Assembly (NCBI GenBank): GCA_903929455.1 | Contig: CAIYVA010000110.1 | Location: forward strand, 14,651 to 78,650 | Length of the DNA stretch: 64,000 bases | DNA from: an uncultured Pseudomonadota bacterium | Lineage (GTDB): Bacteria; Pseudomonadota; Gammaproteobacteria; Steroidobacterales; Steroidobacteraceae | Direction: 5' to 3' | In this document: in pieces, positions 222 to 19,531 of the stretch | Layout: each line of letters opens with the position of its first letter | Numbering within the stretch: the first letter of the stretch is position 1 | Notes under the pieces: generated by a model | What the model was told of the DNA's origin: nothing | Seen by the model: only the letters and a program-made list of their open reading frames with translations | Databases searched by the model: none | Program-made: the position numbers and the translations under genes

Positions 222-1187
222 ATGGACATCAAGGCGCTGGCGTATGTGGGATTTGGATCCACCAACCCGCTGGAGTGGCTCCAGTTTGGTACCGACGTCT
301 TAGGCATGATGCCGGCGCGAGCCGTTCCTGGTGCAGGCTGGGGACCGCCCACGGTGCCACGACCCGCCAGTGAGCAAACCGGTATCGGTGCAGATGGATC
401 GGTGTATCTCAAGATGGACGAGCGCCAGTGGCGCATCGCTGCGCACCCACACACAAAAAACGGCGCTCTGTTGTACATGGGCATGGAATTCGATGGGCCT
501 GAGCCTTTCGCTGTCGCCTTAAAAGAACTCAAAGATGCCCGCATTGAGGTGACCGTCGGCACAGACCAAGAAGCGGCTGCACGGGCAGTCACCGCACTGG
601 CCCGTATACGCGATCCGAACGGCGTATCAATCGAGTTATTTTATGGCCACACCTGTGACTATATGTTTCACTCGCCCCACTACGATCATCACTTCGTCGC
701 TGGCCATCTAGGTGTCGGTCACATGAATCTGTTTTTACAAAAACAGCCTGAGTGCTTTGATTTCTACACCAAGGTGCTGGGCTTTCGCCTCTCGGATTAC
801 ATTAGCTTTGGTCCCGGCGTGCGCCTACAGTTCCTGCGCTGCAATCCAAGACATCACAGCTTAGCGATCGTCGACCTAGGCGGCGTCACCGGTGTTCAGC
901 ACTTTTTAGTAGAGATGGCTGACATTGATATGGTCGGTCGAACCCTCGATCGAGCCAAGAAAGCCGGCTATAAGGTGGTCGCTACTTTGGGTCGTCACCG
1001 CAACGACGGCATGCTGTCTTTCTATATGCGCGGCCCGGGTGGCTTTGACGTAGAAGCCGGCTGCCAGGGCAAGCTATTGGACGAGACTTGGAGAGCCAAC
1101 GAGTTCTGTGAGGGTGATCCATGGGGTCATGACGGCATCATTGATGCGATGGGCGAATCCTTAAAGGACATGGCGCAACAAAAATAA
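222..1187 (+). CDS. type I extradiol ring-cleavage dioxygenase (VOC superfamily, BphC/HsaC-like)
   Basis: 321-aa ORF starting at ATG 222. C-terminal motifs CNPRHHSLA and LGRHRNDGMLSFYMRGPGGFDVE...WGHD are characteristic of 2,3-dihydroxybiphenyl / 3,4-DHSA dioxygenases. Has a Pro/Gly-rich insertion of roughly 20-25 aa after residue 30. Confidence 0.85.
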   Translation: MDIKALAYVGFGSTNPLEWLQFGTDVLGMMPARAVPGAGWGPPTVPRPASEQTGIGADGSVYLKMDERQWRIAAHPHTKNGALLYMGMEFDGPEPFAVALKELKDARIEVTVGTDQEAAARAVTALARIRDPNGVSIELFYGHTCDYMFHSPHYDHHFVAGHLGVGHMNLFLQKQPECFDFYTKVLGFRLSDYISFGPGVRLQFLRCNPRHHSLAIVDLGGVTGVQHFLVEMADIDMVGRTLDRAKKAGYKVVATLGRHRNDGMLSFYMRGPGGFDVEAGCQGKLLDETWRANEFCEGDPWGHDGIIDAMGESLKDMAQQK

Positions 1188-1195
1188 CCGATGGT

Positions 1196-1227
1196 CAGCG
1201 CGCTTGCCTACGTCAGGTGGCGCGCTG
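1196..1227. terminator. hairpin between convergent genes (possible bidirectional terminator)
   Basis: CAGCGCGC (1196-1203) pairs perfectly with GCGCGCTG (1220-1227). It lies in the 48-nt gap between the dioxygenase stop and the ligase stop. There is no clear U tract. Confidence 0.4.
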
Positions 1228-1235
1228 CAGTTAGG

Positions 1236-2867
1236 TCAATTGGTAGCGCCCGTGAGCTGCAACGCACTGGCCATTTGCTCGCGTAGTTTAAATTTCATGA
1301 CCTTTCCGGATGGCGTCAACGGCAAGCGATCAACGAACACCACGTAACGGGGCACTTTCCAGCGCGACACGCGCTCCAAACACCAGCTGCGGATATCCTC
1401 AGGTGTGGGCACTGACCCCGGCACCAAGACAACCACTGCGCACACTTCCTCACCGTACTTGACGTCCGGCACGCCCACCACAGCGACCGTACTGACATCG
1501 GGATGTTGCAGCAGCAGACCTTCAATCTCGATCGGCGATAGATTTTCGCCACCGCGTATAATCATGTCTTTCGAGCGGCCCACAATCGTCACAAAACCCT
1601 GTGGATCCATCGTGGCCAAATCACCCGAATGGAGCCAGCCTTCCGCATCAATGGTCTGAGCAGTTTGCTCTGGGTCGCGATAGCCCATCATACGACCAGG
1701 ACCCTGATAGCACAGCTCCCCGCGCACCCCATGCGGCACGATGCCGCCCGCTTGATCAACCAGCTTAATGCTCACACCTGGGGCTGCCACCCCACAGGTC
1801 GTTGCTTTTTTCTCAACAGGATCATCCGCTGAGGTACTTGAGGTAACACCACAGGTCTCGGTTTGGCCATACCCATTAATCAGCTGTGCGCCAAAGCGCC
1901 GCTCCCATATGGGGATCAACTCGACCGGCACTTGGGCGCCACCAATGATCAGCAGCTGCAACGCGGACAGATCTCGCTGTGCAAAACTCGGATCATCCAG
2001 CATGGCGATCACCATAGTCGGTACACCGGCAAATACCCGACAGCGCTCTTGCTCCAGTAGCTCCAACGTCCGATCCGCTTTAAAAATTCGTACTGGCAGC
2101 GTGGTCGCACCGATCAAGGCAGCACCTGGCGTGAAGACACCCGAACCACCCACGTGAAACAGCGGAAATGCACTGCACACACGATCTCCCGACTCAATGC
2201 CATAGCGTCGATGGGCATTGAGCGCCGATGTGACGATGGCATTGGAGGACAGCTGGGCGGCTTTCGGATTGCCCGTCGTCCCTGAGGTGTACTGAATCAT
2301 GAATAAACGATCGGGATCGACTACCGGAAAATCACGCGTATCTGATGCCCCCGCCATCAGTGCACGGACTCCGTTAGAGAAGGAATAAATACCCAATAAA
2401 TTCGGCAATTGCGGCGCCACAGCCTCAATCACGGACCGCAGTTGCACACCACTGACCTCATCCGCATGAAAAATGCAGCGCACCTGCACGACGTCTAAGG
2501 CATATAACAGCTCAGCCTGCTTATAGAGCGGATTTAAAGTCACAATGACCAAGCCCGCCCGCGAGATCGCGTACTCAATGAGTATCCACTCCGGATAACT
2601 GGGGCCCCAAACCGCCACTCGATCACCCACTTGATACCCTAAGGACAGCAAGCCAGCAGCTAGCTTCGAGACCTGCTGATCAAGCTGCTGGTAGGTCAGT
2701 CGTACCGCGTCCAGCCCGGGCTCTGGCGCTGAGACCACCGCCTCCCGATCAGGCCACTGTTTCGCCGCACGCCGCAAGGCATCCGACAGCGTGAGACCAA
2801 GGCTCTGAGCCTCGGCTGACTCAGCCATCCACACCGACCGATCAGGATCAGGACGCAGCACACTCAT
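1236..2867 (-). CDS. AMP-dependent acyl-CoA synthetase/ligase (FadD-like)
   Basis: Motifs YTSGTTGNPKA, GYGQTE, SGDLA and PLTPSGKVMKFKL. The ORF extends to 3086, but homology-like sequence begins at Met74 (MSVLRPDP...), whose ATG is at 2867. Confidence 0.85.
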   Translation of the reverse strand: MSVLRPDPDRSVWMAESAEAQSLGLTLSDALRRAAKQWPDREAVVSAPEPGLDAVRLTYQQLDQQVSKLAAGLLSLGYQVGDRVAVWGPSYPEWILIEYAISRAGLVIVTLNPLYKQAELLYALDVVQVRCIFHADEVSGVQLRSVIEAVAPQLPNLLGIYSFSNGVRALMAGASDTRDFPVVDPDRLFMIQYTSGTTGNPKAAQLSSNAIVTSALNAHRRYGIESGDRVCSAFPLFHVGGSGVFTPGAALIGATTLPVRIFKADRTLELLEQERCRVFAGVPTMVIAMLDDPSFAQRDLSALQLLIIGGAQVPVELIPIWERRFGAQLINGYGQTETCGVTSSTSADDPVEKKATTCGVAAPGVSIKLVDQAGGIVPHGVRGELCYQGPGRMMGYRDPEQTAQTIDAEGWLHSGDLATMDPQGFVTIVGRSKDMIIRGGENLSPIEIEGLLLQHPDVSTVAVVGVPDVKYGEEVCAVVVLVPGSVPTPEDIRSWCLERVSRWKVPRYVVFVDRLPLTPSGKVMKFKLREQMASALQLTGATN

Positions 2868-3045
2868 GGGTTCACACCGCTTAAGCACATAGGCCACACT
2901 GTATCGTCGAGCGCACGCCGCGTCACCCCTAAGCGAGCGCTCAATGTGACATCCGACGTCTAAAGAACAAGACGGGCACAATTCCGTTATAGTGACTGCC
3001 TTGGGAAAATTAAGCCATCGATCCATCGCGCGGAGTGCACCTCTC

Positions 3046-3513
3046 ATGACGACCCCCAATAAACCATCTGGTGTGCAGGCATTCATTGCCGATCACTTGG
3101 CGCGTTATCTGGCCACCGACGGTGAGGACGGATATTGGCTCGACGCCAGTCTCTTCGGTGGCACCGGCAAGTTACCGAGCCTGCTACTAACCACCACCGG
3201 TCGAACATCTGGAAAACTCATCACCACACCGATGATCTTCAGAGCCTTTGGCGCAGACACCCACCCCGCTTATATGGTGGTGGCCTCCAAAGGCGGCGCT
3301 CCGGATGCGCCCAACTGGTATCTAAACCTGCAGGCCAATCCACAGGTGACCGTGCAAATCAAAGCCGACAAGTTCAAAGCCACGGCGCGCACTGCCAACA
3401 CAGAAGAACGGGCAGAGCACTGGCCTAAACAGGTTGAGTTCTTCCCAGGCTTTGCGCGCTATCAAAGCAAAATCGAGCGGGAGATTCCGCTCGTGATTTT
3501 AGAAAGGGTATAG
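3046..3513 (+). CDS. DUF385 / deazaflavin (F420H2)-dependent nitroreductase-family protein (Ddn-like split beta-barrel)
   Basis: C-terminal signature APNWYLNLQANPQVTVQI...ERAEHWPKQVEFFPGFARYQSK...REIPLVILE is typical of this family. The likely start is ATG 3046 (Met19 of the ORF). Confidence 0.7.
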   Translation: MTTPNKPSGVQAFIADHLARYLATDGEDGYWLDASLFGGTGKLPSLLLTTTGRTSGKLITTPMIFRAFGADTHPAYMVVASKGGAPDAPNWYLNLQANPQVTVQIKADKFKATARTANTEERAEHWPKQVEFFPGFARYQSKIEREIPLVILERV

Positions 3514-3562: not shown

Positions 3563-4351
3563 TTACGCGGTGAGGTATTTGACGATGGTGCTCGAAAGAC
3601 TGCCAATCATCTGCTCATCGGTGAGCTTTGGTGATGGATCTTCGAGATGCGCATCAATCACGCCGACACATAGGTAAGTCGACACATGAGTCGCTGTTTC
3701 AATATCAGCCACCTTAATTTCATCGCGGTGGTTGGAGAAAAACAAATACGTCGTTGAATACAGAAACATCTCAGGCTTCAACTGCTCCGAATCCTGACAT
3801 ACCTGCGTCGCCTCGCGAGGCAGTCTCCGAACGAGGAATACACTCTTTCTCCTCAGTTCCAATACCAAACGAATCAGCTCAACCATACATTCGGCCAGCG
3901 GCCTGTGCATTGCTGTCAGCATGAACTTTCGAACCGGTTCGCTGTTATTGACGACCAAGGTTTCCACGAGTGCTGCGACAATGGCTTCCTTTCGGGGGAA
4001 ATACTGATACACCGTGCCGATGCTCACACCTGCTACCTGTGCGATGTAATTAGTGGTCGCGTACTCATAGCCTCTAGTCAATATGATTGACTCAGCAGCC
4101 TGCAAAATACATTCGACCGTAAATCGAGCGCGCGGTTGCTTTGGAATCTTAGGCGACGAAGCAGACGCTTCTATTCCCTGATTTGATTTCCCTGCTTTTG
4201 CTTTGACACGGGATTTGGTGATTGCGACACCAGCATCATTCGGTGCTGCCATCGTATCGTATGAGTGAGCCAAATCGCCCGCACTCAGTGGGCCCGCGTT
4301 GGCAATACGCGGTGCTTTGACTTTACGCAATGAAGACACGCCAGCAGCCAT
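3563..4351 (-). CDS. TetR-family transcriptional regulator with a ~75-aa basic N-terminal extension
   Basis: HTH region YATTNYIAQVAGVSIGTVYQYFPRKEAIV. Paralogue of the adjacent TetR. The start is uncertain (Met1 at 4351 or Met34 at 4252). Confidence 0.85.
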   Translation of the reverse strand: MAAGVSSLRKVKAPRIANAGPLSAGDLAHSYDTMAAPNDAGVAITKSRVKAKAGKSNQGIEASASSPKIPKQPRARFTVECILQAAESIILTRGYEYATTNYIAQVAGVSIGTVYQYFPRKEAIVAALVETLVVNNSEPVRKFMLTAMHRPLAECMVELIRLVLELRRKSVFLVRRLPREATQVCQDSEQLKPEMFLYSTTYLFFSNHRDEIKVADIETATHVSTYLCVGVIDAHLEDPSPKLTDEQMIGSLSSTIVKYLTA

Positions 4352-4384
4352 AAAATTTCCTAATCAACCAGGCATCATAACGAT

Positions 4385-5005
4385 CTATTTGGTGAGGTAT
4401 TTGATAATCGCACTCGATAGATGTTCAATCATCTGCTCATCGGTGAGCTTAGGCGATGGATCTTCAAGATGTGCATTAATAACGCCCACGCATAAATATT
4501 CCGACACATACATTGCCATTTCGATATCGTCGATTTTGATTTCGTCGCGATGATGAGTAAAAAAAGCATGAATAGTGGAGTACAAAAAGGTTTCGGGCGT
4601 CAACTGCTCTGAGTCTTCACCTATCTTGGTGGCATCACGAGGCAGTCGCCGGAATAAAAAAGCGCTTTTTTTCCGATTATTTAGCACCAAACGAATCAGT
4701 TCCGGCATGCACTCAGCGAATGGCCTATGCATCGACGCCAGCAGATACTTGCGGACAGGCTCCGTGCTATTGACCACCAGATTTTCAAGCAAGGCAGCCA
4801 CAATCGCTTCTTTACGAGGGAAGTACTGATACACCGTGCCAATGCTCACGCCCGCTACCTGCGCGATGTAATTGGTGGTGGCGTATTCGTAGCCTTTCTT
4901 TGAAATGATTAATTCAGCAGCCTGCAGGATGCAGTCAACAGTCACACGCGCACGAGGCTGCGTGGGCGCCTTACGCTTCGAGGTGGTCTGTTCCAATGCC
5001 TTCAT
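4385..5005 (-). CDS. TetR-family transcriptional regulator
   Basis: 206 aa with an HTH identical to the neighbour's (YATTNYIAQVAGVSIGTVYQYFPRKEAIV). It lies 33 nt upstream of the paralogue on the same strand. Confidence 0.9.
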   Translation of the reverse strand: MKALEQTTSKRKAPTQPRARVTVDCILQAAELIISKKGYEYATTNYIAQVAGVSIGTVYQYFPRKEAIVAALLENLVVNSTEPVRKYLLASMHRPFAECMPELIRLVLNNRKKSAFLFRRLPRDATKIGEDSEQLTPETFLYSTIHAFFTHHRDEIKIDDIEMAMYVSEYLCVGVINAHLEDPSPKLTDEQMIEHLSSAIIKYLTK

Positions 5006-5354
5006 ATATATCCTGGCTCCGCCCTACCGATCGGGCCGACGGCCTATCGTCTTCAAGCACCATCGCCATTCGGCCATCGGGCAGGTTGTGAAAGCGCTGT
5101 TTCAAAAGGACCACGCCAGACAATACCCTAGCCCGCATGGACAACTTGAGCATGACAGATCAGCTACCATTTGTTAATAAGCCCGCGCTCCCCCACGACG
5201 TATTAAAACAACACGCGCACCTAGGGCACCGGCCTTACAAGGGCGTTTGGCGGTCTGGTAACACCGAGAAATCGCAAGTGAGACCGGACCTTAGACCGCT
5301 TAGGGCGCTGACGGCTCTGCTGGTGTTTTGAGCCGAGGGGTTGGATCTGACTCC

Positions 5355-6125
5355 TCAGTCACGAGCGGCGCGCGCTCGTTTGATCAAGGCGCGTGTCTCA
5401 TCAGTCACCCAGCCGGTGACACTCGCGTGCTCCGGCGATTCCATCGGCGCATCAAAAATATCAGCCAAATCCGCGCGCACGAGGGCGCGTGTCTTTTGAT
5501 AGGCCTGAACGGGTAAGGCCGCAAGCTCATGCGCCAGTTCGAGTGCACGCGCAATGACCTGATCCGGCTCTGACAGCTCATCGACCAGCCCACACGCGAA
5601 GGCCTGATCGGAGGCCAACATGAGGCCCCGTGTCAGCATCGAGGCGGATTGGGTGATGCCCACTAAGCGTATCAGGCAGCGATAGAGGCGCTGGCCTGGA
5701 TAGAGACCGACCTTCACTTCGCTGAAGCCCATCCGGAACTCGCCACGCGCCATGATGCGATGATCACACAAGATCGCGAGTACAGCCGCACCAGCCGGGC
5801 ACTGACCGGTGATCGCTGCCACCACGGGGAATGGGGAACGCACCAATCGCACCTGCAATGCACGAAAAGCCAATACCAAGGCGCGTACCGACTCATCGCT
5901 CTCAACGACCTCACGGACATCAAGCCCTGCCGAGAACACACCCGGCAGACCCGACAACACGACTGCCCGTAGTCGCATAGGATCCATCGCCAAATCTTCA
6001 GCCGTCCGCAGTGCCTCGTCGAGAGCCTCCACCAAGCGGCGGTTGAGCGCATTGACAGGAGGCTGCGCCAATCGCACCTCCCGCACCAAACCATGATCAA
6101 TGATCTCCAGCATGAGTCTTGACAC
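5355..6125 (-). CDS. enoyl-CoA hydratase/isomerase (crotonase family)
   Basis: 256 aa with crotonase-type oxyanion-hole segments VVLSGLPGVFSAGLDV and VVAAITGQCPAGAAVLA. Confidence 0.85.
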   Translation of the reverse strand: MSRLMLEIIDHGLVREVRLAQPPVNALNRRLVEALDEALRTAEDLAMDPMRLRAVVLSGLPGVFSAGLDVREVVESDESVRALVLAFRALQVRLVRSPFPVVAAITGQCPAGAAVLAILCDHRIMARGEFRMGFSEVKVGLYPGQRLYRCLIRLVGITQSASMLTRGLMLASDQAFACGLVDELSEPDQVIARALELAHELAALPVQAYQKTRALVRADLADIFDAPMESPEHASVTGWVTDETRALIKRARAARD

Positions 6126-6369
6126 CTCTGTGAGCCCGCCTCGCTATAGTGATGACTCTGGCGCGGCACAGCAAGCGCACAGGGCACGCGCACCCGGCCC
6201 CTCTGACACCCAACCATCTGATCGACCTTCCGCGCGCATGTCGCCTTAAAACCGTAGCAAACACAAGGCATTGACGGATCCACAGGCCAAGGAAGCGAGT
6301 TAATTTCGAGCGCTGATCGGTGCTACAGTCAGCCCATCGGCCTAATGCCAATTGACTGAGGAAAAACGG

Positions 6370-7272
6370 ATGCTGACCGGGAAAGTGGTGGTGGTGACAG
6401 GTGCTGGCAACGGCGTCGGTGCGGAAATTGCAAAGCTCGCTGCCCGATATGGCGCGCAAGTGGTCGTGAATGACGCCGGGGTATCCACATCCGGCGAAGG
6501 ACGCGACCCGACGGTTGCTAAGAGCATGGTCGCTGAGATCGTCGCCAAAGGCGGCAAGGCCATTGCCAGTGTCCGCGATGTGGCGGACTGGGACGATGCG
6601 CAGGGCATCATTCAAGATGCCATCGATGCCTTTGGTCGCGTGGATGCCGTCATCAATAATGCAGGTGTCGTACGCGATGCCATGTTCCACAAGATGACGA
6701 AAGAGGAATTTGACTTCGTCGACAGCGTTAACCTGCGTGGCGTTTTTTACGTATCACGTGCCGCCGCACCGTATTTCAAAGAGCAAAAAAGTGGTTGTTA
6801 CGTCCACATGACCTCAACCAGTGGTCTGATTGGCAATATCGGTCAAGTGAACTACGGCGCCACCAAAATGGGTGTGGTGGGTTTATCTAAGTGCATCGCG
6901 ATGGACATGAACCGCTACGGGGTCACCACCAACGTAATAGCCCCGTTTGCCTGGACACGCATGGTAGCGACTGTCCCCGAGACACCTGAAAACCAGCGGC
7001 GCTTAGAAATGGCGCGACGACTGAAGCCTGAGAAAATCGCCCCCATGGTCGTGGCATTGGCAAGTGACGCAGGTCGCAACACCACCGGACAAATCTTCGG
7101 CGTCCGTAACAACGAAATTTTTCTATTCAGTCAACCAAGACCCATTCGCAGCGCCCACACCGCGGAGGGTTGGACGCCAGAAACGGTCGTTGAGCGTGTC
7201 CTCGCGTCCTTCCAACCGAGTTATACGTCGCTTGAACGCTCCAGTGACATCTTCAGCTGGGATCCAGTGTAA
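6370..7272 (+). CDS. short-chain dehydrogenase, MFE-2 N-terminal-type 3-hydroxyacyl-CoA dehydrogenase (Hsd4A-like)
   Basis: TGAGNGVG Rossmann motif, NNAG, and catalytic YGATK. ATG 6370 is preceded by GAGGAA 7 nt upstream; the ORF track starts at TTG 6352. Confidence 0.85.
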   Translation: MLTGKVVVVTGAGNGVGAEIAKLAARYGAQVVVNDAGVSTSGEGRDPTVAKSMVAEIVAKGGKAIASVRDVADWDDAQGIIQDAIDAFGRVDAVINNAGVVRDAMFHKMTKEEFDFVDSVNLRGVFYVSRAAAPYFKEQKSGCYVHMTSTSGLIGNIGQVNYGATKMGVVGLSKCIAMDMNRYGVTTNVIAPFAWTRMVATVPETPENQRRLEMARRLKPEKIAPMVVALASDAGRNTTGQIFGVRNNEIFLFSQPRPIRSAHTAEGWTPETVVERVLASFQPSYTSLERSSDIFSWDPV

Positions 7273-7302
7273 GCCTTTTAGGCTCACCATCCGCCAGTCG
7301 AT

Positions 7303-8166
7303 ATGAACCTGCAAGCGCTACAAAATCATCAGTTCCCAAGCCAGCGCTTCACCTATAGCGCAAAGGACACGGCCCTGTATGCGCTCAGTGTTGGCGTGGG
7401 CAGCGACCCACTCGATACCCACCAGCTACGTCTCGTCTATGAAAAGACGCTGCAGGCATTGCCCACCCTCGCGTCAGTGATTGCTATGCCAACACCGTGG
7501 GTTCGAAACCCAGCCTTCGATGTGCATTACGCAAAACTATTACACGGTGAACAGACCTTAACCATCCATACACCGCTGCCGGCGAGCGCTGAGGTGCAAG
7601 CCCACTATCGAGTGATCGCGGTCGATGACAAAGGCGCCGACAAAGGAGCGCTACTGCATTTTGAGCGAGCCATCTCCGATGCCGCCACCGGTGAGGCTTT
7701 ATGTACGGTGACCTCATCACTGTTTCTACGCGCTGATGGGGGATGCGGTGGTTTTGGCACACCGCCAGCCTCAGCACCCGCGGCACCCGCACACGCGTTC
7801 TCAGGCACGCCGGACTTCACCGATGAGCTCACCACTGCTGTGAGCTCTGCCTTGCTGTACCGACTCAATGGCGATCTTAATCCGCTCCATATTGACCCGG
7901 CAGCCGCCACCGCTGGCGGTTTCGATCGGCCCATTCTGCATGGCCTATGCACCTATGGAGTGGCAGGATACTTGTTAGTCCGAACCGCGTGCGATCACGA
8001 CCCAATGCGACTGCGCGCGCTCAACGTGCGTTTTAAGTCGCCGGTCTATCCAGGTGAAACCATTCGCTTAGAGGCTTGGCACGGACCGGATGGTATTTAT
8101 TTTCAAGCGGTCGTCCCAAAACGCAAGCAAGTCGTTCTGAGCAACGGTTTTGCTCGCATCCAATGA
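7303..8166 (+). CDS. MaoC-type (R)-specific enoyl-CoA hydratase, double hot-dog (MFE-2 hydratase-2 / Hsd4B-like)
   Basis: 287 aa with the hydratase-2 motif YRLNGDLNPLHIDPAAA in the C-terminal half. It follows the MFE-2-type SDR. Confidence 0.8.
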   Translation: MNLQALQNHQFPSQRFTYSAKDTALYALSVGVGSDPLDTHQLRLVYEKTLQALPTLASVIAMPTPWVRNPAFDVHYAKLLHGEQTLTIHTPLPASAEVQAHYRVIAVDDKGADKGALLHFERAISDAATGEALCTVTSSLFLRADGGCGGFGTPPASAPAAPAHAFSGTPDFTDELTTAVSSALLYRLNGDLNPLHIDPAAATAGGFDRPILHGLCTYGVAGYLLVRTACDHDPMRLRALNVRFKSPVYPGETIRLEAWHGPDGIYFQAVVPKRKQVVLSNGFARIQ

Positions 8167-8256
8167 CAACCTCTCCTGTACTGGCCGCCCCGTTAACTCA
8201 AATGCCTTATGCGACCAATGTCTTTCCTATCACAGCGCACCTGACGGAGTCACTGA

Positions 8257-10918: not shown

Positions 10919-10957
10919 TATCCAACAATATCGAGTCAGGTGGCTGGAGCTTGCGTG

Positions 10958-11467
10958 ATGACTGATCTCCCTAGCATCGTCAAGTCATGGATCGGGACTG
11001 CGGTCGTCGTCGTCGAGCGGACCGTCACGGTTGAAAAAGAATCCTGGCTCGGCTTTTGCGCTGCCATCCAGGATGGTAATCCACTGTATTGGGATGAATC
11101 CTTCGCCCAATCACATACGGAGCGCACCATCGCTCCCTTCGCGATGCTGCCCAGCTGGGGCAGTACGCACCCTTGGTACCCCGGCAAGCAAAGCGATGGC
11201 ATCCGTGCCATGGAATTGCATTTCATGCTGAAGGAGGCGCTTAGCTACCCCAATGGCATCGTCACCAGCGTAGAGATGGCTTATCACGAGCCGGTGCGCG
11301 CGGGGGACTCGGTGCGAGTAGAGCAGATTTTACGATCCGTGAGCGATGAACGAGCGACCCGACTAGGGCCCGGCAGGGATTGGACCATCGAGGTGGTTTA
11401 TCGCCGGCAGGATCACGTGCTGCTGGGCTTAGAGACCATGTCATTCCTAGGCTATCGCCGCAACTAA
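10958..11467 (+). CDS. MaoC_N-type hot-dog protein (ChsH1-like hydratase subunit)
   Basis: About 170 aa single hot-dog (GNPLYWDESFA...) directly upstream of a MaoC dehydratase gene. ATG 10958 has GGAG 9 nt upstream; the ORF track starts at GTG 10940. Confidence 0.65.
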   Translation: MTDLPSIVKSWIGTAVVVVERTVTVEKESWLGFCAAIQDGNPLYWDESFAQSHTERTIAPFAMLPSWGSTHPWYPGKQSDGIRAMELHFMLKEALSYPNGIVTSVEMAYHEPVRAGDSVRVEQILRSVSDERATRLGPGRDWTIEVVYRRQDHVLLGLETMSFLGYRRN

Positions 11468-11483: not shown

Positions 11484-11945
11484 ATGAACCCTAACCTGGC
11501 TCTACACGCCCCATTGCCCACCCGACGCATCGAGGTGACCACTAAGTCCATCATCATGGGTGCGGTGACGAGCCGCGATTGGGCGCCATTACACCACGAT
11601 GTGGTGTGGGCGAAGACCGAGGGCAATCTGCCTGACATCATCATGAACAACTACACCCAAGCAGGACTGATCAATGCCTATGTGACGGATTGGTCAGGGC
11701 CAGCCGCTCGGGTCGGTCGTTTGCGTTTTTCCATGCGAAGCCCTATTTGCCCAGGCGATGCCTTAGAGCTGTCCGGCGTGATTGAAGCCATTGAGCCTGA
11801 ACCTGAGCTGATCTGGGTGAGTCTTGCGATCGAGTTAACGGTCGGTGAACGAGTGGCCACTCGATCAACGGTGCGAGTAGCCTTGCCGGCCAGCGAGCAG
11901 TCCCCCTCGCTGTGGCATCGTCAAGCCGGTGCGTGGAAGCCCTGA
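11484..11945 (+). CDS. MaoC-like dehydratase subunit (ChsH2-core-like, no DUF35)
   Basis: 153 aa single hot-dog with the degenerate hydratase motif SRDWAPLHHD. It starts 16 nt after the preceding hot-dog gene. Confidence 0.7.
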   Translation: MNPNLALHAPLPTRRIEVTTKSIIMGAVTSRDWAPLHHDVVWAKTEGNLPDIIMNNYTQAGLINAYVTDWSGPAARVGRLRFSMRSPICPGDALELSGVIEAIEPEPELIWVSLAIELTVGERVATRSTVRVALPASEQSPSLWHRQAGAWKP

Positions 11946-11977: not shown

Positions 11978-12955
11978 ATGAAAGCCATCCTCTGCCACGC
12001 CTTCGGTCCGATCGACACACTGCGCTACGAAGACACCGACGATCCACTGTGCGGGCCCGGCCAAGTCCTCATCGAGGTCATGGCGGCCGGCGTTAACTTC
12101 CCCGATGCCCTGTTGGTACGCGGTGAGTACCAAAGCAAACCGCCTCTTCCCTTCATTCCAGGTAGCGAGGTCGCGGGCTTTGTTAAAGCGCTCGGTGTGG
12201 GCGTGCAAGGATTGAGCGTCGGTGATCGCGTCGCTGCTTTTTGCGGCACAGGAGGCTATGCCACTCAGGCAGTCGTACCTGCCTCTCACGTCTTTCCGCT
12301 ACCCGCCCAAGTGCCTTTCACCACCGCCGCCGGCATGGTGGTGACCTACGGTACGTCGTATCACGCTCTGAAGGATCGCGCGCAGCTTTGCTCAGGCGAG
12401 CGGCTGCTGGTACTCGGCGCCGCTGGCGGCGTTGGTCTGGCAGCCGTTGAACTCGGCAAGCACCTAGGTGCTACCGTCGTCGCCGCCGCCTCGACGCCCG
12501 CTAAACTGGCCATCGCCACGGCCCATGGGGCGGATGACGTACTCGACTACAGCACCGTCGACCTACGCACTGAGCTCAAACGGCGCTTTGCAAAAGGGAT
12601 CGACGTCGTAGTCGACCCGGTGGGCGGCGACTTCAGCGAGGCGGCGCTTCGCAGCCTCGCTTGGGCCGGTCGCTATCTCGTAGTCGGATTTACGGCTGGA
12701 CGGATTCCAGCCATTCCAAGCAATCTCTTACTACTCAAAAGTGCAGCCCTGTTGGGTGTGCTATGGGGTGCCACGCTTAAAGCTGACCCGATACAACAGG
12801 CAGCCAACCTACAGATACTCTTTTCGTTAGTAGCCAACGGCTCACTCACGCCTTTCATTGAATCCGTACAGCCACTGAGTGAGGCCCCGACTGTGCTGAC
12901 ACGACTGATGTCGCGACAAGTCACCGGCAAAATTGTCTTGTCGATGAGCGCCTAA
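11978..12955 (+). CDS. NADPH:quinone oxidoreductase / MDR zinc-type alcohol dehydrogenase family
   Basis: GVNFPDALLVRGEY and LVLGAAGGVGLAAVELGK (Qor-like cofactor motif). Confidence 0.85.
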   Translation: MKAILCHAFGPIDTLRYEDTDDPLCGPGQVLIEVMAAGVNFPDALLVRGEYQSKPPLPFIPGSEVAGFVKALGVGVQGLSVGDRVAAFCGTGGYATQAVVPASHVFPLPAQVPFTTAAGMVVTYGTSYHALKDRAQLCSGERLLVLGAAGGVGLAAVELGKHLGATVVAAASTPAKLAIATAHGADDVLDYSTVDLRTELKRRFAKGIDVVVDPVGGDFSEAALRSLAWAGRYLVVGFTAGRIPAIPSNLLLLKSAALLGVLWGATLKADPIQQAANLQILFSLVANGSLTPFIESVQPLSEAPTVLTRLMSRQVTGKIVLSMSA

Positions 12956-14539: not shown

Positions 14540-15730
14540 ATGGATTTTGACTTCAGCGCCGATGAAAAACGCTTTATTGAGGAAGTACGTGCCTTCCTCC
14601 GCGAGCAGGCCTTGCTACCCGATGCCGCCGATGTGATGGCACCCAATCGTGATTCAGACTCAATGCTCTCCGATACGCCCGCACGTCGCCGATTCAACCG
14701 TGAAATGGCCAAACGCGGCTACCTCGGTATGTCGTGGCCTAAGGAATACGGTGGCAGTGAAAAGAGTGGTATCTACGAGTATCTACTCAATGAAGAATTG
14801 GCGCGGGTCGGCGCGCCGCTCATCGGCAAAGGCATCGGCATCGTCGGCAAGACATTGATCCGCCATGGATCAGACAAATTAAAAACCGAGTTTTTACCGC
14901 AGATCCGAAACGCAGAGATCGAATTCGCACTCGGCTACTCAGAGCCCGGTGCTGGCTCTGATCTGGCCTCACTCAAACTGAAAGCGGAACGAAGCGGTGA
15001 CGGCTGGCTGTTCAATGGACAGAAAATATGGAACACCTCAGCGCATTTTGCCGATTGGTATTGGCTGGCGGCACGAACCGATACGCAAGTTGCCAAACAC
15101 AAAGGCATCAGCTTATTTCTCGTACCGATGAATCAGAAAGGTATTACGGTCTCCGCTATCCACACACTCGGCGAACACCGTACGAATCACGTCTTCCTCG
15201 ATAACGTCTGGGTGCACGACGATTACCGTGTCGGAGAACTGAACAAAGGTTGGACCTATATCTCAGAAGCACTCGATTTTGAGCGCTTCACCATTTACCC
15301 ATTCAGCCCACTCGAAGCCAAACTAGAACAGATGTGGACGCACGTCAAAAGCACTCAACGCAATGGCAAACCATTAACTGCCGTACCCGAGATACGCCGC
15401 CAAATGGCGCGCCTGGTGGCCCAAGTGGAGACCGCGAAAATGCTCCAACGCAGCGTTATTTTCTCAGCCTCACAAGGCGGCGTTCCAACCGTCGAAGCAT
15501 CGATGTGTAAGCTGTACACCACCGCGCTCTCGCAACGGCTAGCGAATACCATGATAGATATCCTCGGTGCAGACGGGCTGCTACATAAGTCCTGGCCCGA
15601 TGCACCTGATGGCGGTAAGTGGGAGTGGCTCTATCGCTCCAGTGCGCTAGAGACCATCGGCGCAGGCACCTCAGAGATCCAGAAAAACATCATTGCACGC
15701 CGCGGTCTCGGCCTTCCTTTAACGAACTGA
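14540..15730 (+). CDS. acyl-CoA dehydrogenase
   Basis: 396 aa with ACAD architecture: YSEPGAGSDLASL, WNTSAHFADW, and C-terminal GAGTSEIQKNIIA. Confidence 0.85.
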   Translation: MDFDFSADEKRFIEEVRAFLREQALLPDAADVMAPNRDSDSMLSDTPARRRFNREMAKRGYLGMSWPKEYGGSEKSGIYEYLLNEELARVGAPLIGKGIGIVGKTLIRHGSDKLKTEFLPQIRNAEIEFALGYSEPGAGSDLASLKLKAERSGDGWLFNGQKIWNTSAHFADWYWLAARTDTQVAKHKGISLFLVPMNQKGITVSAIHTLGEHRTNHVFLDNVWVHDDYRVGELNKGWTYISEALDFERFTIYPFSPLEAKLEQMWTHVKSTQRNGKPLTAVPEIRRQMARLVAQVETAKMLQRSVIFSASQGGVPTVEASMCKLYTTALSQRLANTMIDILGADGLLHKSWPDAPDGGKWEWLYRSSALETIGAGTSEIQKNIIARRGLGLPLTN

Positions 15731-15851: not shown

Positions 15852-17012
15852 ATGGATCTTATTTTTAGTGAAGAGCAGCAAATGCTGCGCGATATGACTC
15901 GTCGCCTGTGCGAGGACTTCGCTCCATTGACCGTACTCAGACAATTGGAAGGCACTGAGCCTGGTTACTCCGACGATTTTTGGAAAGCGCTGATCGACGC
16001 CGGCATGTCGGGTCTTACCATTGCCGATAAAGATGGCGGTTTAGGCTTAGGCGCGACTGAGATGATGATCGTACACGAGGAGTTTGGCAGAGCACTGGCA
16101 TTCTCACCCCATTTTGTGAGCTCAGTGCTCGCGGCTCACCTCATCAGCACAACCGGCAACACCGCTCAGCGCCAGCGGTGGCTCCCGTCTATTGCCAGTG
16201 GACAATCGATTGTCAGTATCGGCAGTCTGGAGCCACAGGGCGGGCATGAGCTATCAGATATCCAGTGCTCAGCGAAGCGCACCGCCACCGGCTATCGCCT
16301 ATCCGGCACGAAACACTTCGTGGCCTATGCCGCCCGCGCACACGCTGCTGTGATCTTGGCCCGCGTCGGCACAGCCACAGATGATGTGATCGCCCTACTG
16401 GTTGATTTAAAAAGCCCTGGTGTTTCGATCCAATATCAGCCTAATCACGCGCGCGAAGCGGTCTACCAAGTCACCTTGCGGGACGTTGATGTCTCTATTG
16501 AAGACGCGCTCAAAGATGGCCAGCCCATGGCGACTGAATGGCAAGATGCCATGTACAGCGGGTTAATCGCGTTGGCCGCCCAAGCGGTCGGCGGTGCTGA
16601 ACGCGCGCATGCGATGGCAGTGGAGTATGCCAAAGTGCGCGAAGCCTTCGGCAAACCGATTGGCTCATTCCAAGCAGTTGCCCACAGCCTAGCGGATGTG
16701 GCTGTCGACATCGAAGGCTGTCGCATGCTGGTTCGTCAGGCTGCCTGGGCTAAGGATAGAGGTTATGACTTTCACCGCGTCGCCGCCATTGCGAAGCTAC
16801 AAGCCTGCGAAATGTATCGCCGCACCGCGGGGGTGACCATCCAAGTTCATGGCGGCATTGGCTTCACCAATGACGCGGATCCCCAGTTATTTTTCCGCCG
16901 CGCCAAGCACTTGCAGCTACTGCATTGGGACTCGGACTACCTCGAGGAGCGTATCATCGAGATGGTACTGCAGGAGACGTCAGAGCTCAGCGCCCATGGG
17001 GCTAACGGATAA
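15852..17012 (+). CDS. acyl-CoA dehydrogenase-family protein, probably a non-catalytic partner subunit
   Basis: 386 aa with the ACAD fold (GKPIGSFQAVAH, IQVHGGIGFT). I find no acidic residue at either known catalytic-base position. Confidence 0.75.
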   Translation: MDLIFSEEQQMLRDMTRRLCEDFAPLTVLRQLEGTEPGYSDDFWKALIDAGMSGLTIADKDGGLGLGATEMMIVHEEFGRALAFSPHFVSSVLAAHLISTTGNTAQRQRWLPSIASGQSIVSIGSLEPQGGHELSDIQCSAKRTATGYRLSGTKHFVAYAARAHAAVILARVGTATDDVIALLVDLKSPGVSIQYQPNHAREAVYQVTLRDVDVSIEDALKDGQPMATEWQDAMYSGLIALAAQAVGGAERAHAMAVEYAKVREAFGKPIGSFQAVAHSLADVAVDIEGCRMLVRQAAWAKDRGYDFHRVAAIAKLQACEMYRRTAGVTIQVHGGIGFTNDADPQLFFRRAKHLQLLHWDSDYLEERIIEMVLQETSELSAHGANG

Positions 17013-17095: not shown

Positions 17096-18259
17096 ATGCT
17101 GACTTCTCAAGAGCCTGAGCACCTGACCCTATTGCGCGACACGTTGCGCCGGTTCATTGACAAGGAAATGCCACGAGATTTGGTCAGACAATGGGACCGC
17201 GAGGATCATTTTCCAAGTGACGTGTACCAAGGACTGGTGGATCTAGGCTTAACGGGCCTCACGGTCGCAGAAGAGTACGGCGGCAGCGGACGTGACATCA
17301 CGGCGATGATCATGACCATTGAAGAGCTGTCGGCCCGCAGCATGGCGGTGTCCACCGGATACATACAGTCGGCGTGCTATGCCGGGCTTAACATTGCAGA
17401 CGTCGGCAGTGAAGAGCAGCGCAGAACCTTACTTCCACGCGTTGCCACCGAAGGCCTTAAATTTTCTTATGGCTTCAGCGAACCGGATGTCGGCGCGGAC
17501 ATTGCGAGCGTGCGAAGCACGGCCGTTCGTCGTGATGGGAAAATCGTCATTAACGGACAGAAACGTTGGTGTTCTGGTGCAAAGATCGCCCAGTACATCT
17601 ATGCCCTCGTGAGAAGCGGTCCGGTCGAAGACCGCTACAACAACCTATCTCTCATACTCGTCCCAACGGACGCGCCCGGTATTACCTACCAACCACAAGC
17701 CACCCTCGGTTTGCGTGGCGATGGCACCTACGACGTCAGCTTTGACCACGTAACCGTTAGAGAAGAGGACATCGTTGGCGGCCTAGATGGGTGGAACGCT
17801 GGATGGAAAAAACTGGTAGGCCCTGGCCTTAATGTTGAAAAAATCGAAGTTGCGGCGATGGCATTGGGCATCTCCCGCGCAGCGGTCGATGATGCGTGGA
17901 CTTATGCACAGGATCGCAAGCAATTCGGCAAGCCCATTGCCTCTATTCAGTCTATCCGACACATGCTCGCGGACGTCAAAACAAAATGGCAGGCCTGTCA
18001 CTTAATGACCTACCACGCTGCCTCCATCGTGGAGGCGAACCAACCAGCGGACGTTGCCACCGCGATGGCCAAGCTATTTGTGTGCGATACGGCGCGCGAC
18101 ATTGTCCTCACCTGCCAACAGATCATGGGCGCCTACGGCTACGCAGATGGCTTTGACATGGAACGCTATGTTAGAGACATCCTAGTCATGCCGATACTGG
18201 GCGGTTCTTCTGCCATACAAAAGAACAACATCGCCAATCGTCTGGGGCTTCCTCGATAG
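17096..18259 (+). CDS. acyl-CoA dehydrogenase
   Basis: 387 aa: FSEPDVGADIAS, GKPIASIQSIRH, MGAYGYADGFDMERYVRD, and C-terminal LGGSSAIQKNNIA. Confidence 0.85.
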   Translation: MLTSQEPEHLTLLRDTLRRFIDKEMPRDLVRQWDREDHFPSDVYQGLVDLGLTGLTVAEEYGGSGRDITAMIMTIEELSARSMAVSTGYIQSACYAGLNIADVGSEEQRRTLLPRVATEGLKFSYGFSEPDVGADIASVRSTAVRRDGKIVINGQKRWCSGAKIAQYIYALVRSGPVEDRYNNLSLILVPTDAPGITYQPQATLGLRGDGTYDVSFDHVTVREEDIVGGLDGWNAGWKKLVGPGLNVEKIEVAAMALGISRAAVDDAWTYAQDRKQFGKPIASIQSIRHMLADVKTKWQACHLMTYHAASIVEANQPADVATAMAKLFVCDTARDIVLTCQQIMGAYGYADGFDMERYVRDILVMPILGGSSAIQKNNIANRLGLPR

Positions 18260-18335
18260 ACCACAAGGCGAAGTCGATTGCTCAAGATCTGCAGACAGAC
18301 ACGTCAGCGTTGAGAGTGAAAAAAAGGAGAACACG

Positions 18336-19049
18336 ATGACACCACAGCCGTCACCCCCCCGTTGCCTCGTCATTACTGGCGCCAGCAAAGGCATTGGACT
18401 CGCGACAGCGACCCGCTTTGCTGCGGCAGGCTACCAAGTGATCAATCTCTCCCGAACGGACACCTCCGTGCCAGGCGCGGTGCAGATGACCGTCGATCTC
18501 AGTAACCCTTCATCCATTGAGTCCATATCAAAACCCCTGCTCGCAGCAGTTGAGGGGTTCCCTGTTATAACCCTCGTCCACAATGCTGCGCTTCAGACCA
18601 TGGGAAGCATCAAAGAGGCCGAAAGCGAACAGCTACGAGCTATGTTCGAGGTCAACGTGGTCGCTCCTGTGACACTCAATCAGATGCTCTTGCCCACCAT
18701 GCAGCCCGGTTCGTCCGTGATTTATATCGGCTCAACCATGAGCCATCGTGCCACGCGCAATCTAACCGGCTATATCGCCACGAAGCATGCCACCTTGGGT
18801 TTGATGCGCAGCACCTGCCAAGACCTAGCAGGTACCGGTGTGCATACGTGCTGCATTTGCCCAGGCTTTACTGAAACCGAGATGCTCCGAAGCTTCGGCG
18901 GTGATGTGCTAAAGCATCTCGCGTCGTTAACCACTCAGCAACGCATTGCATCAACGAGTGAGATCGCCAATTTAGTGCATTTCGCGGCGGAGAACCCGGT
19001 CGTCAATGGCGCAGCACTGAACGCCGATCTTGGATTTATTGAGCCCTAA
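18336..19049 (+). CDS. short-chain dehydrogenase/reductase
   Basis: TGASKGIG, NNAA and YIATKHA motifs. Confidence 0.85.
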   Translation: MTPQPSPPRCLVITGASKGIGLATATRFAAAGYQVINLSRTDTSVPGAVQMTVDLSNPSSIESISKPLLAAVEGFPVITLVHNAALQTMGSIKEAESEQLRAMFEVNVVAPVTLNQMLLPTMQPGSSVIYIGSTMSHRATRNLTGYIATKHATLGLMRSTCQDLAGTGVHTCCICPGFTETEMLRSFGGDVLKHLASLTTQQRIASTSEIANLVHFAAENPVVNGAALNADLGFIEP

Positions 19050-19096
19050 CCCATCAGCTAATCCGTCATACGGCTACGCTTAAAAGGAACGCCGAC

Positions 19097-19531
19097 ATGT
19101 CATCAGATGAACAAGCGATTATGCATGGCCTCGGTCATTTCGCACGATTGATAGACGGCAAGTTGTGGGACCGCATAGGTGAGGTGTTTGCAGCCGATGT
19201 GAGCTTCCACTACGGGATCGGTGCAGACCAGCACGGCATTGAGCGCTTACGTGCGCTGTTTCAGCATTTTTTGGACCGATGCGGTGGAACGCAACATCTG
19301 CTGGGTAGCGTCATTTTAGATTTGGATGGCGACCAAGCGATCAGTCGCGCCTATGTTCAAGCGCGCCATCAGCGTCGTGATGACCTAGGGGGGCCGGTTC
19401 TCGATACGAGCGGCGAATATATTGATCGTTGGGAGCGGCGCCCCGAAGGCTGGCGTATCATCCGCCGCGACGCGAAATGGTTTACGTTCTCAGGAGATTT
19501 AAGCATCCTACCAAGCGTCGTGGACGCCTGA
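19097..19531 (+). CDS. NTF2-fold / SnoaL-like protein
   Basis: 144 aa. The pattern (LIDGKLWDRIGEVFAADV...HLLGS...YIDRWERRPEGWRI) resembles SnoaL_4-type NTF2 proteins. Last gene of the ACAD operon. Confidence 0.6.
   Translation: MSSDEQAIMHGLGHFARLIDGKLWDRIGEVFAADVSFHYGIGADQHGIERLRALFQHFLDRCGGTQHLLGSVILDLDGDQAISRAYVQARHQRRDDLGGPVLDTSGEYIDRWERRPEGWRIIRRDAKWFTFSGDLSILPSVVDA

Follow-up and report, generated by a model that had tools for sequence, protein, structure and literature searches.

The window, a 64,000-nucleotide stretch of contig CAIYVA010000110.1 (C110:14651-78650), comes from an uncultured metagenome-assembled genome (MAG; 2.44 Mb in 244 contigs, estimated to be 95.6% complete) whose nearest named MAG relatives are from lakes and carry a Gammaproteobacteria label, not a Sphingomonadales one. 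Its first 19 kb, which have an even G+C content, form the right-hand part of a catabolic cluster of approximately 34 kb and approximately 32 genes (C110:37-34181). We propose that this cluster probably serves the breakdown of estrogen-type steroids, whose phenolic A ring and B ring it would attack by a 4,5-seco-type route. It contains a cytochrome P450, an extradiol dioxygenase, and an indolepyruvate-ferredoxin-oxidoreductase (IOR)-family enzyme beside beta-oxidation genes, a combination that, by analogy with the characterized degraders, is the signature of the estrogen 4,5-seco pathway.

To describe the region, we used a list of the longest open reading frames (ORFs) with their translations, together with Pfam and NCBIfam profile searches of the window and upstream proteins. 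All 18 genes that an earlier note on this DNA had listed are intact ORFs with the domains it named, at coordinates that are the same or a few codons off; one gene, an F420H2_quin_red family member at 2992-3513, had been missed. The same note correctly supposed that further ring-opening genes sit upstream of position 1, as the contig runs 14.6 kb beyond the left edge of the window and holds 13 further catabolic genes there, including an EdcC-type IOR. Among the NCBIfam equivalogs, only the thiolase model (PRK06157) scores above its curated cut-off. The models for HsaC, BphC, FadD3, EchA19, IpdE2, PimCD, and KstR all fall below theirs, and gene names are therefore not assignable from these equivalogs.

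Two published systems provide the comparison. The edc cluster of Novosphingobium tardaugens spans approximately 19 kb and consists of a TetR gene and two divergent operons (Ibero et al. 2020, PMC7793797). The first operon encodes the P450 EdcA, a ChsH2-like protein, a lipid-transfer protein (Ltp), crotonases, a thiolase, an unexplained "HMG-CoA synthase," a 3-hydroxyacyl-CoA dehydrogenase, and an acyl-CoA dehydrogenase (ACAD); the divergent operon encodes the dioxygenase EdcB, a small VOC protein, the IOR EdcC, an ACAD, two MaoC hydratases, and a TonB-dependent receptor (PMC7793797). The aed cluster is carried on a 95,132-bp plasmid of Rhodococcus (Prescottella) equi DSSKP-R-001, and gene disruption in Rhodococcus B50 showed AedF, a thiolase, and AedK, an aldolase, to act on C17 and C15 intermediates of the A/B rings (Hsiao et al., PMC8913865). 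We found that plasmid p3 of Novosphingobium sp. ES2-1 matches the published edc cluster in gene order over one region, beyond which lies a HIP cluster, and that R. equi plasmid plas2 has a region that follows the published order of the aed genes. Of the 16 ES2-1 edc genes, 14 have their best match in the present genome on C110:46-31660, including the IOR (53 to 54% identity), the first ACAD, ACAD1 (62%), and an enoyl-CoA hydratase (ECH; 53 to 56%).

P450, extradiol dioxygenase, and IOR

The dioxygenase at the left edge of the window retains its iron ligands (H167, H227, and E278) and has an N-terminal insertion after residue 40 that is common to its clade and missing from HsaC, TesB, and BphC. 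A tblastn search of 72,556 plasmids with this protein returned two estrogen degraders at the top, Novosphingobium sp. ES2-1 (plasmid p3, 47% identity) and R. equi DSSKP-R-001 (AedB on plas2, 40%), with HsaC-type genes scoring lower. Similarly, phmmer scores are 317, 234, and 213 bits against edc/aed proteins versus 173 to 176 bits against HsaC (best PDB match, 2ZI8). The HsaC NCBIfam model gives approximately 197 to 210 bits versus a cut-off of 450, and the BphC model also remains under its cut-off. Maximum-likelihood trees of 13 and 37 sequences both split BphC and HsaC/TesB, together with an HsaC-type gene found on another contig of this genome (C204), from the clade of the window enzyme (support of 96/98 and 100/99). 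The latter clade also takes in R. equi AedB as its first branch, the enzyme in the EdcB position of ES2-1, a second ES2-1 dioxygenase, and environmental homologs, and the subclade containing EdcB is sister to that of the window enzyme. Clades that contain homologs of both characterized 4-hydroxyestrone 4,5-dioxygenases thus lie on either side of it.

The P450 points the same way. It keeps the ExxR motif and the heme motif FGAGIHACLG, and its best phmmer matches are AedA (254 bits, 35% identity) and EdcA (250 bits, 37%), versus 166 bits for CYP125MRCA and approximately 117 bits for CYP142. In a ranking of the 1490 plasmid records with a P450 match, first place goes to the EdcA homolog of ES2-1 and third place to the AedA homolog of R. 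equi. We propose that this protein is a phenol ortho-hydroxylase of the estrone 4-hydroxylase type.

The 1,178-residue IOR lies upstream of the window. In a tree of 10 sequences, it groups with the IORs of Dasania marina and Parasphingopyxis marina (99/97) and then with ES2-1 EdcC (96/95), and this EdcC-side group stands apart from five generic IORs (99/99). The small VOC protein next to it is 32% identical to the small VOC protein of the edc cluster. As a separate observation, an IOR-family gene on a plasmid of Rhodococcus sp. DMU1 (L122 3992-11414) adjoins genes for a VOC protein, a flavin adenine dinucleotide (FAD) oxidoreductase, and an ACAD. The DMU1 enzyme falls on the EdcC side of the tree (99/99), which sits uneasily with the published absence of EdcC homologs from Actinobacteria.

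The organism very probably degrades steroids, as the earlier note had proposed; KshA-, KstD-, HsaA-, HsaC-, HsaD-, and IpdABC-like genes are present elsewhere in the genome. Contig C204 encodes a Rieske oxygenase with a full-length KshA_C domain (198 bits; 57% identical to a KshA-like gene of Sphingobium herbicidovorans) and an HsaC/BphC-type dioxygenase (C204:8584-9483) that reaches 295 bits on the HsaC model, above the window gene. Next come two CoA-transferase subunits, a nitronate-monooxygenase-type reductase, and a crotonase, corresponding to the order ipdA-ipdB-ipdC-ECH, and HsaF/HsaG-type aldolase and dehydrogenase genes are also on this contig. A KstD-like flavoprotein on C236 has 3-ketosteroid-delta-1-dehydrogenase as its top family (527 bits, under the cut-off of 789), and C163 holds an HsaD-like hydrolase (129 bits) that is cut by the contig end. 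Contig C37 encodes IpdE2-like and other ACADs, two thiolases, and an HsaA-like monooxygenase that is 51% identical to one adjoining TesB/KshA in S. herbicidovorans. The HIP genes of ES2-1 match C204 (IpdA, 56%; IpdB, 60%; IpdC, 64%; ECH, 71%) and C37 (FadD3, 58%; IpdE1, 66%; FadA6-like, 67%; SDR, 70%). Gene content thus suggests that the genome has a complete-looking 9,10-seco nucleus pathway and a HIP (C/D-ring) pathway.

The presence of a separate 9,10-seco set together with HIP genes suggests a second A-ring route, made up of the P450, dioxygenase, and IOR, such as is found in bacteria that degrade both estrogens and androgens. We also considered that these three enzymes might instead be an alternative route for the phenolic 3-HSA of androgen degradation, replacing HsaAB, HsaC, and HsaD. 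In its favor, both routes begin with a phenol carried by a steroid skeleton, and the genome is of small size. However, HsaA-like, HsaC-type, and HsaD-like genes are already in the genome, and known edc carriers keep both systems, making this alternative extremely unlikely. A role for the P450 and dioxygenase as substitutes for HsaAB and HsaC was rejected because HsaA-like and HsaC-type genes lie elsewhere in the genome.

Beta-oxidation-like genes and a proposed route

The beta-oxidation-like genes also resemble those of the estrogen clusters, to differing degrees. ACAD1 is 62% identical (538 bits) to ES2-1 RS20325, which adjoins EdcC, and 55% identical (476 bits) to an R. equi ACAD, versus 219 and 213 bits for the cholesterol-pathway structures Tcur3483 and ChsE4. 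ACAD2 scores 264 bits against R. equi RS25350 and 192 bits against ES2-1 RS20345; the third ACAD of the window reaches at most 122 bits against any edc/aed ACAD. The Ltp-type protein, upstream of the window, is 57 to 58% identical to the edc Ltp (475 bits versus 308 bits for Ltp2, 6OK1), and the stand-alone DUF35 protein is 39% identical to its edc counterpart. The MaoC_N subunit scores 87 bits against the MaoC in the AedO position, 59 bits against edc RS20320, and 22 bits against ChsH (identity to edc/aed of 34 to 40%), and the MaoC subunit scores 90 bits (43%) against edc RS20315 versus 49 bits against ChsH1/ChsH2. An upstream crotonase is 51 to 53% identical to ES2-1 RS20370, an enoyl-CoA-hydratase-related protein of the first edc operon (OpA), and the edc/aed ECH matches of the window crotonase are weak (37 bits or less). 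The MFE-2-type SDR is 39% identical (194 bits) to the SDR in the AedE position of R. equi and 31% identical to the edc OpA SDR. In phmmer searches at 1e-5, no edc/aed counterpart was found for hydratase 2, the MDR reductase, or the SnoaL_4/NTF2-fold protein, and no specific counterpart for the third ACAD. The MDR reductase possibly acts in enoyl or quinone reduction.

These scores bear on a different reading, which the earlier note favored: that the genes remove a sterol or bile-acid side chain. On that reading, they would encode a CYP125-type terminal hydroxylase, a FadD19-type ligase, ChsE-type ACADs, a ChsH1/ChsH2 hydratase, and an Ltp2 aldolase, with an HsaC for ring opening. The best PDB matches are indeed HsaC (2ZI8), CYP125MRCA, ChsE4/Tcur3483, ChsH1/ChsH2, and Ltp2 (6OK1), and a CoA ligase and an MFE-2-type SDR/hydratase pair are present. 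However, on the single scale of phmmer, the proteins with these structural matches score far higher against edc/aed proteins, and this holds for every protein that could be compared. The labels "HsaC" and "CYP125-like" fail on the phylogenetic and score evidence given above, the true HsaC-type gene being that on C204. "KstR-type" fares no better for the two TetR proteins, which score 22.1 and 27.7 bits on the KstR equivalog model versus a cut-off of 280. Further, the IOR and the small VOC protein have no role in side-chain removal, and compact orthologous clusters in other bacteria place the dioxygenase beside the IOR. Taken together, these observations make the side-chain reading very unlikely. 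The families that had been called its hallmark (heteromeric ACADs, the MaoC pair, the DUF35-associated thiolase-like protein, P450, and TetR) are not specific, as they equally make up the published estrogen cluster. They do not separate side-chain degradation from estrogen A/B-ring degradation, which matters for genome annotation. The cluster nonetheless shares folds, and probably reaction types, with the cholesterol side-chain enzymes of M. tuberculosis and Thermomonospora curvata, namely, an alpha2beta2 ACAD, a heteromeric MaoC hydratase, and a DUF35-docked retro-aldolase. It differs from them in that scores are roughly half (0.46 to 0.83 times) those to edc/aed and in that DUF35 is separate or fused to an HMG-CoA synthase (HMGCS)-like protein, not to the hydratase. 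The ACAD, hydratase, and aldolase proteins are each about twice as similar to their edc/aed counterparts, and they would resemble the side-chain enzymes in action without being orthologous to them.

The HMGCS-like/DUF35 fusion and the thiolase behind it form a pair of their own. The thiolase is 44% identical (300 bits) to edc thiolase RS20360 and scores 174 bits against the 6ESQ thiolase, and the fusion protein matches ES2-1 RS20355, a 467-residue protein annotated as an "OB-fold protein," along its whole length (31% identity). The best PDB matches of the fusion protein are PhlA, archaeal HMGCS, and DUF35 chains. Like the archaeal thiolase/HMGCS/DUF35 complex (6ESQ) and the PhlACB acetyltransferase (5M3K), the pair has a three-part architecture, here with the HMGCS-like and DUF35 parts fused; unlike those complexes, its context is catabolic beta-oxidation, not mevalonate or phloroglucinol synthesis. 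We propose that the fusion protein is a noncatalytic or scaffolding partner of the adjoining thiolase and that the thiolase may release acetyl-CoA after the first beta-oxidation-like round, in the manner of AedF. The "HMG-CoA synthase" whose presence perplexed the edc authors is, in its ES2-1 version (467 residues), fused in the same way.

We examined the synteny of the best 80 of approximately 490 (489 confirmed) relatives of the fusion gene in species-representative genomes (L003-L082). The fusion gene is followed by the thiolase in 79 of these 80 loci, hydratase 2 co-occurs in 34, and the SDR and hydratase often precede the pair. The SDR/hydratase 2/HMGCS-DUF35/thiolase set is thus a generic cassette, and fusion-gene synteny was rejected as a route to the identity of the pathway. 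This indicates a mosaic cluster, with an edc-like core to which a beta-oxidation cassette was recruited. The fusion/thiolase pair is very widespread in Proteobacteria, and across classes the thiolase is 63 to 98% identical and the fusion protein 44 to 90%.

The AMP-binding domain of the CoA ligase begins only at residue 104, and the F420H2_quin_red gene overlaps the 5' end of the longest ligase ORF. The ligase start is therefore probably about 45 to 100 codons downstream of the longest-ORF start. The protein is 36% identical to ES2-1 FadD3 and 30% identical to AedJ. Assignment as FadD3 was rejected, since ES2-1 FadD3 matches C37 at 58%, versus 36% here.

The steps that we propose for the cluster are modeled on Wu et al. 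2019 and Ibero et al. 2020 (PMC7793797). Estradiol would be oxidized to estrone by an SDR, either the second SDR of the window, a candidate 17beta-hydroxysteroid dehydrogenase, or the upstream SDR. The P450 would hydroxylate estrone at C4 to yield 4-hydroxyestrone, and the dioxygenase would open the catechol ring between C4 and C5. The resulting 2-oxoacid end would be decarboxylated, with loss of C4 as CO2, and loaded with CoA by the EdcC-type IOR. A first round of beta-oxidation-like shortening would use an ACAD, a hydratase, the MFE-2-type SDR, and the thiolase with its HMGCS-like/DUF35 partner (AedF-like thiolysis). A second round would use the ACAD1/ACAD2 pair, the MaoC_N/MaoC hydratase, and the Ltp2-like retro-aldolase with DUF35 (the AedK/AedL step). 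Ring B may then be opened by the upstream crotonase-fold enzymes to give HIP-CoA, which would be finished by the Ipd, FadA6, and FadD3 genes on C37 and C204.

Relatives of the cluster and the choice of substrate

Dasania marina and Parasphingopyxis marina (L117 and L118) carry a related, compact block of approximately 18 kb, for which we found no reported function and in which the dioxygenase is directly upstream of the IOR. The order is SDR-ECH-CoA ligase / MaoC_N-MaoC-ACAD-ECH-ECH-MaoC-DUF35-dioxygenase-IOR-SDR-Ltp-VOC-SDR-TetR-ACAD. For 16 proteins of the cluster, the blocks encode orthologs (42 to 69% identity), among them ACAD1 (68 to 69%), ACAD2 (48%), MaoC_N (47 to 56%), MaoC (52 to 53%), the IOR (62 to 63%), the CoA ligase (52 to 55%), and SDR2, the 236-residue SDR adjoining TetR (53 to 56%), as well as DUF35, the dioxygenase, Ltp, the small VOC protein, and three crotonases. 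TetR2, the second of the two TetR genes in the window, is orthologous to the TetR inside these blocks (46 to 53%). This orthology suggests that the CoA ligase, TetR2, and SDR2 are core members of this type of cluster, unlike in canonical edc. The blocks lack the SDR/hydratase 2/HMGCS-DUF35/thiolase cassette, the MDR reductase, and the third ACAD, and their P450 is at the edge or outside.

Like the edc/oec clusters of N. (Caenibius) tardaugens NBRC 16725, Sphingomonas sp. KC8 (cluster II), and ES2-1, the cluster studied here encodes a P450, a dioxygenase, a VOC protein, an IOR, ACADs, a MaoC pair, Ltp/DUF35, crotonases, a thiolase with HMGCS/DUF35, an SDR, and a TetR. It differs from them in gene order, in being divided into several divergent units, in the level of identity (31 to 62%), and in having a dioxygenase of a sister subclade, a TetR not homologous to the ES2-1 TetR in the EdcR position, and no TonB-dependent receptor inside the cluster. 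It also has genes that edc/oec clusters lack: a dedicated CoA ligase, hydratase 2, the MDR reductase, the third ACAD, the DDN-like protein, an old-yellow-enzyme (OYE) reductase, a thioesterase, and a sulfotransferase/DUF1214 pair. With the aed clusters of B50 and DSSKP-R-001, it shares homologs of the P450, the dioxygenase, the ACADs (55% and 39%), MaoC, AedK with the DUF35 protein AedL, and an SDR. Unlike here, where an IOR is present and the CoA ligase is only 30% identical to AedJ, the Actinobacteria activate the cleavage product via AedG, AedH, and AedJ.

A large protein search returned 667 homologs of the dioxygenase at an E value of 1e-40 or less, the best 120 of which reach down to 44% identity. 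They include proteins from P. marina (63%), D. marina (55%), and a Halieaceae genome (54%). ES2-1 p3 holds a second cluster approximately 10 kb from the canonical edc (L104 18772-28768), which encodes a P450, a dioxygenase, Ltp, MaoC, an ACAD, MaoC_N, an ACAD, an acyl-CoA synthetase, and TetR. A literature search on EstP1 and EstO1, which yielded a second-hand summary only, found no published function for this second dioxygenase/P450 pair.

Closer to home, we searched 60 relatives (23 of the same genus, 13 more of the same family, and 24 of the same order) for the dioxygenase, KshA_C, and the sulfotransferase. Including the present genome (G000), 2 of the 61 genomes have an ortholog of the dioxygenase, the second being a sister species (G022, 96% identity), and 3 have KshA_C (G000, G022, and G017). 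The sister genome, the source of L003, is collinear with the cluster over the whole region at 82 to 98% protein identity. It has an extra ORF of 137 codons between the thiolase and MaoC_N genes (L003 12723-13136), which in the window are 22 nucleotides apart. The rarity of steroid genes among the 61 genomes suggests that steroid catabolism, especially the estrogen-type cluster, is a recent acquisition of this lineage. Both steroid pathways are packed into a genome of 2.4 to 2.8 Mb.

Several observations weigh against an estrogen-type substrate. The function of the cluster is predicted here from gene content, orthology, and phylogenetic placement, and the ES2-1 and DSSKP-R-001 homologs stand in for the N. 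tardaugens, KC8, and B50 proteins, to which they were matched by gene order and by statements in the papers. Identity to the characterized enzymes is modest (35 to 37% for the P450 and 37 to 47% for the dioxygenase). The dioxygenase lies outside the EdcB subclade, in its sister, and its closest plasmid relative is the second, uncharacterized ES2-1 dioxygenase (47%); in reality, the enzyme could therefore act on some other catechol. The raw identity of the IOR was rejected as a marker of EdcC because unrelated plasmid IORs also reach 50 to 54%, which is why a tree was needed. Among the best 80 fusion-gene loci outside L003-L005, there is no estrogen-type dioxygenase, IOR, or steroid ring-cleavage gene within 10 kb. 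Pfam searches detected no ferredoxin or reductase for the P450 among the scanned ORFs of the cluster, small ORFs not having been searched, and no TonB-dependent receptor domain among the approximately 32 genes of C110:37-34181. Finally, the TetR proteins have no similarity to the ES2-1 TetR in the EdcR position that is detectable by tblastn at 1e-8 or phmmer at 1e-5.

Some of these points would fit the same chemistry acting on another phenolic substrate with a fused or bulky alicyclic part, such as another aromatic steroid or seco-steroid, a phenolic diterpenoid or resin acid, or an alkylphenol. The distinct subclade of the window dioxygenase is consistent with such a substrate, as are the wide occurrence of its 45 to 74% homologs in marine and freshwater bacteria that are not known as estrogen users and the extra genes without an edc equivalent (the MDR reductase, third ACAD, hydratase 2, and DDN-like protein). 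Estrogen levels in lakes are also very low. However, the dioxygenase is bracketed by the 4-hydroxyestrone-dioxygenase clades, the genome carries the downstream HIP pathway that would be needed, and in the 61-genome set the dioxygenase ortholog occurs only in genomes that also have KshA_C. On balance, we regard another phenolic substrate as unlikely, although with a real chance of being correct, and degradation of the A and B rings of estrogen-type steroids as the probable function.

Estrogens are endocrine disruptors at nanogram-per-liter levels. To our knowledge, the organisms that remove them from natural waters are poorly known, and those degraders known to us whose genes have been defined belong to Sphingomonadales and Rhodococcus, few in number and isolated mostly from sludge and soil. 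If the proposed function is correct, the pathway extends to an uncultured bacterium with a very small genome whose nearest named MAG relatives come from lakes and bear a Gammaproteobacteria label, a second conserved cluster architecture also occurs in culturable marine strains, and the dioxygenase and IOR subclades could serve as sequence markers for environmental surveys. More tentatively, the window cluster and the Dasania/Parasphingopyxis blocks might represent a second cluster architecture, as yet undescribed, for the estrogen 4,5-seco pathway, in which the dioxygenase lies by the IOR, followed by SDR, Ltp, small VOC, SDR, TetR, and ACAD genes, with a dedicated CoA ligase. Such an architecture, a possibility that we consider less likely than not, would be distributed among Alpha- and Gammaproteobacteria of marine and fresh waters, one of them a free-living lineage of only 2.4 to 2.8 Mb genome size that acquired the cluster by horizontal transfer. 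Small-genome bacteria in natural waters would then be a real sink for natural and pollutant estrogens, and the PAPS-type sulfotransferase/DUF1214 pairs, expanded sixfold, among the steroid genes could point to the handling of conjugated (sulfated) steroids.

Gene inventory, regulators, and accompanying genes

The genes of the cluster are listed below. Those upstream of the window are read leftwards from the dioxygenase and lie on the opposite strand to it. At the right-hand end, the SnoaL_4/NTF2-fold gene is the last before a mobile toxin-antitoxin-like pair (19841-20891).

Table 1. Genes of the catabolic cluster and sites of sulfotransferase-family genes. Positions are those of the window unless a contig is given; upstream genes follow the leftward reading order.
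Feature	Position	Strand	Domains, scores, or placement
Upstream of the window
SCP-x/lipid-transfer-type (Ltp2-like) protein, retro-aldolase candidate	upstream of window		nearest the dioxygenase in reading order
Stand-alone DUF35 protein	upstream of window		after the Ltp-type protein
Small VOC (Glyoxalase) protein, 133 aa	upstream of window		directly upstream of IOR
IOR-family enzyme, EdcC-type, 1178 aa	C110:8755-12291		POR, TPP_enzyme_C, DUF6537
SDR, SnoaL_2 protein	upstream of window		beyond IOR
DUF1214 protein and sulfotransferase-family protein	upstream of window		beyond SnoaL_2
4HBT thioesterase and OYE reductase	upstream of window		beyond sulfotransferase
Three crotonases	upstream of window		leftmost of the listed genes
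Window
Type I extradiol dioxygenase, EdcB/OecC/AedB clade	222-1187	+	Glyoxalase and BphC_D1 (Pfam)
AMP-binding acyl-CoA ligase	1236-3086	-	AMP-binding (Pfam)
DDN-like split-barrel protein	2992-3513	+	F420H2_quin_red PF04075, 121.7 bits
TetR paralog 1, long N-terminal tail	3563-4351	-	Pfam
TetR paralog 2 (TetR2)	4385-5005	-	Pfam
Crotonase-fold enzyme	5355-6125	-	Pfam
MFE-2-type SDR, predicted (3R)-hydroxyacyl-CoA dehydrogenase	6352-7272	+	Pfam
Double hot-dog enoyl-CoA hydratase 2	7303-8166	+	MFE-2_hydrat-2_N and MaoC (Pfam)
KAS III/HMGCS-like domain fused to ChsH2-type zinc ribbon and OB fold (DUF35)	8257-9696	+	Pfam
SCP-x/archaeal-type thiolase	9716-10918	+	NCBIfam PRK06157, 649 bits versus cut-off of 403
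MaoC_N-type hot-dog subunit, heteromeric hydratase	10940-11467	+	Pfam
MaoC catalytic hot-dog subunit, heteromeric hydratase	11484-11945	+	Pfam
MDR reductase, PIG3/quinone-oxidoreductase-like	11978-12955	+	Pfam; TIGR02824 238 bits, under cut-off of 297
Cytochrome P450	12980-14200	-	Pfam
ACAD1, alpha-type subunit (AedN/edc OpB ACAD ortholog)	14540-15730	+	Pfam and homology
ACAD2, probable partner subunit (AedP-like)	15852-17012	+	homology; NCBIfam likeness to PimD, IpdE2
Third ACAD	17096-18259	+	Pfam
Second, classical SDR (SDR2)	18336-19049	+	Pfam
SnoaL_4/NTF2-fold protein	19097-19531	+	Pfam
Sulfotransferase-family sites
C110 (L001)	4634-7013
C204 (L087)	5881-8339
C236 (L100)	1-879, 4205-5389
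C26 (L102)	1496-2893
C175	~5260-6420

The two TetR genes are 73% identical to each other. The conservation of TetR2 in the Dasania/Parasphingopyxis blocks is consistent with its being the likely repressor of the cluster, and the tandem pair probably represses it. A reading of the intergenic regions and a listing of their repeats revealed no convincing common palindrome that could serve as a shared operator for the pair. A TonB-dependent receptor gene adjoins steroid genes on C163.

The R. equi aed cluster has a PPOX-class member of the same broad superfamily as the DDN-like protein. This gene is perhaps a parallel to the DDN-like gene of the window, which is divergent to the CoA ligase gene.

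Six copies of a sulfotransferase-family gene (PF13469) are present in the genome, with intact PAPS-binding-type motifs (GLPRSGT[ST] and THRDP), and three of them are paired with DUF1214. Several copies have steroid genes as neighbors: on C204, KshA and HsaC lie to either side; on C236, the neighbor is the KstD-like gene; and on C26, it is another FAD enzyme. Within the genus (24 genomes), these genes are found only in this genome and its sister, with six copies in each. We can only guess at a role in sulfation or in the handling of steroid sulfates.

On C163, a pair encoding an APH-family phosphotransferase and a DUF6285 protein (L099 4680-7317) lies after an ACAD gene and ahead of the HsaD-like gene. 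A Cupriavidus plasmid has this pair immediately in front of a generic IOR (L123 2430-3838), a recurring association with acyl-CoA metabolism.

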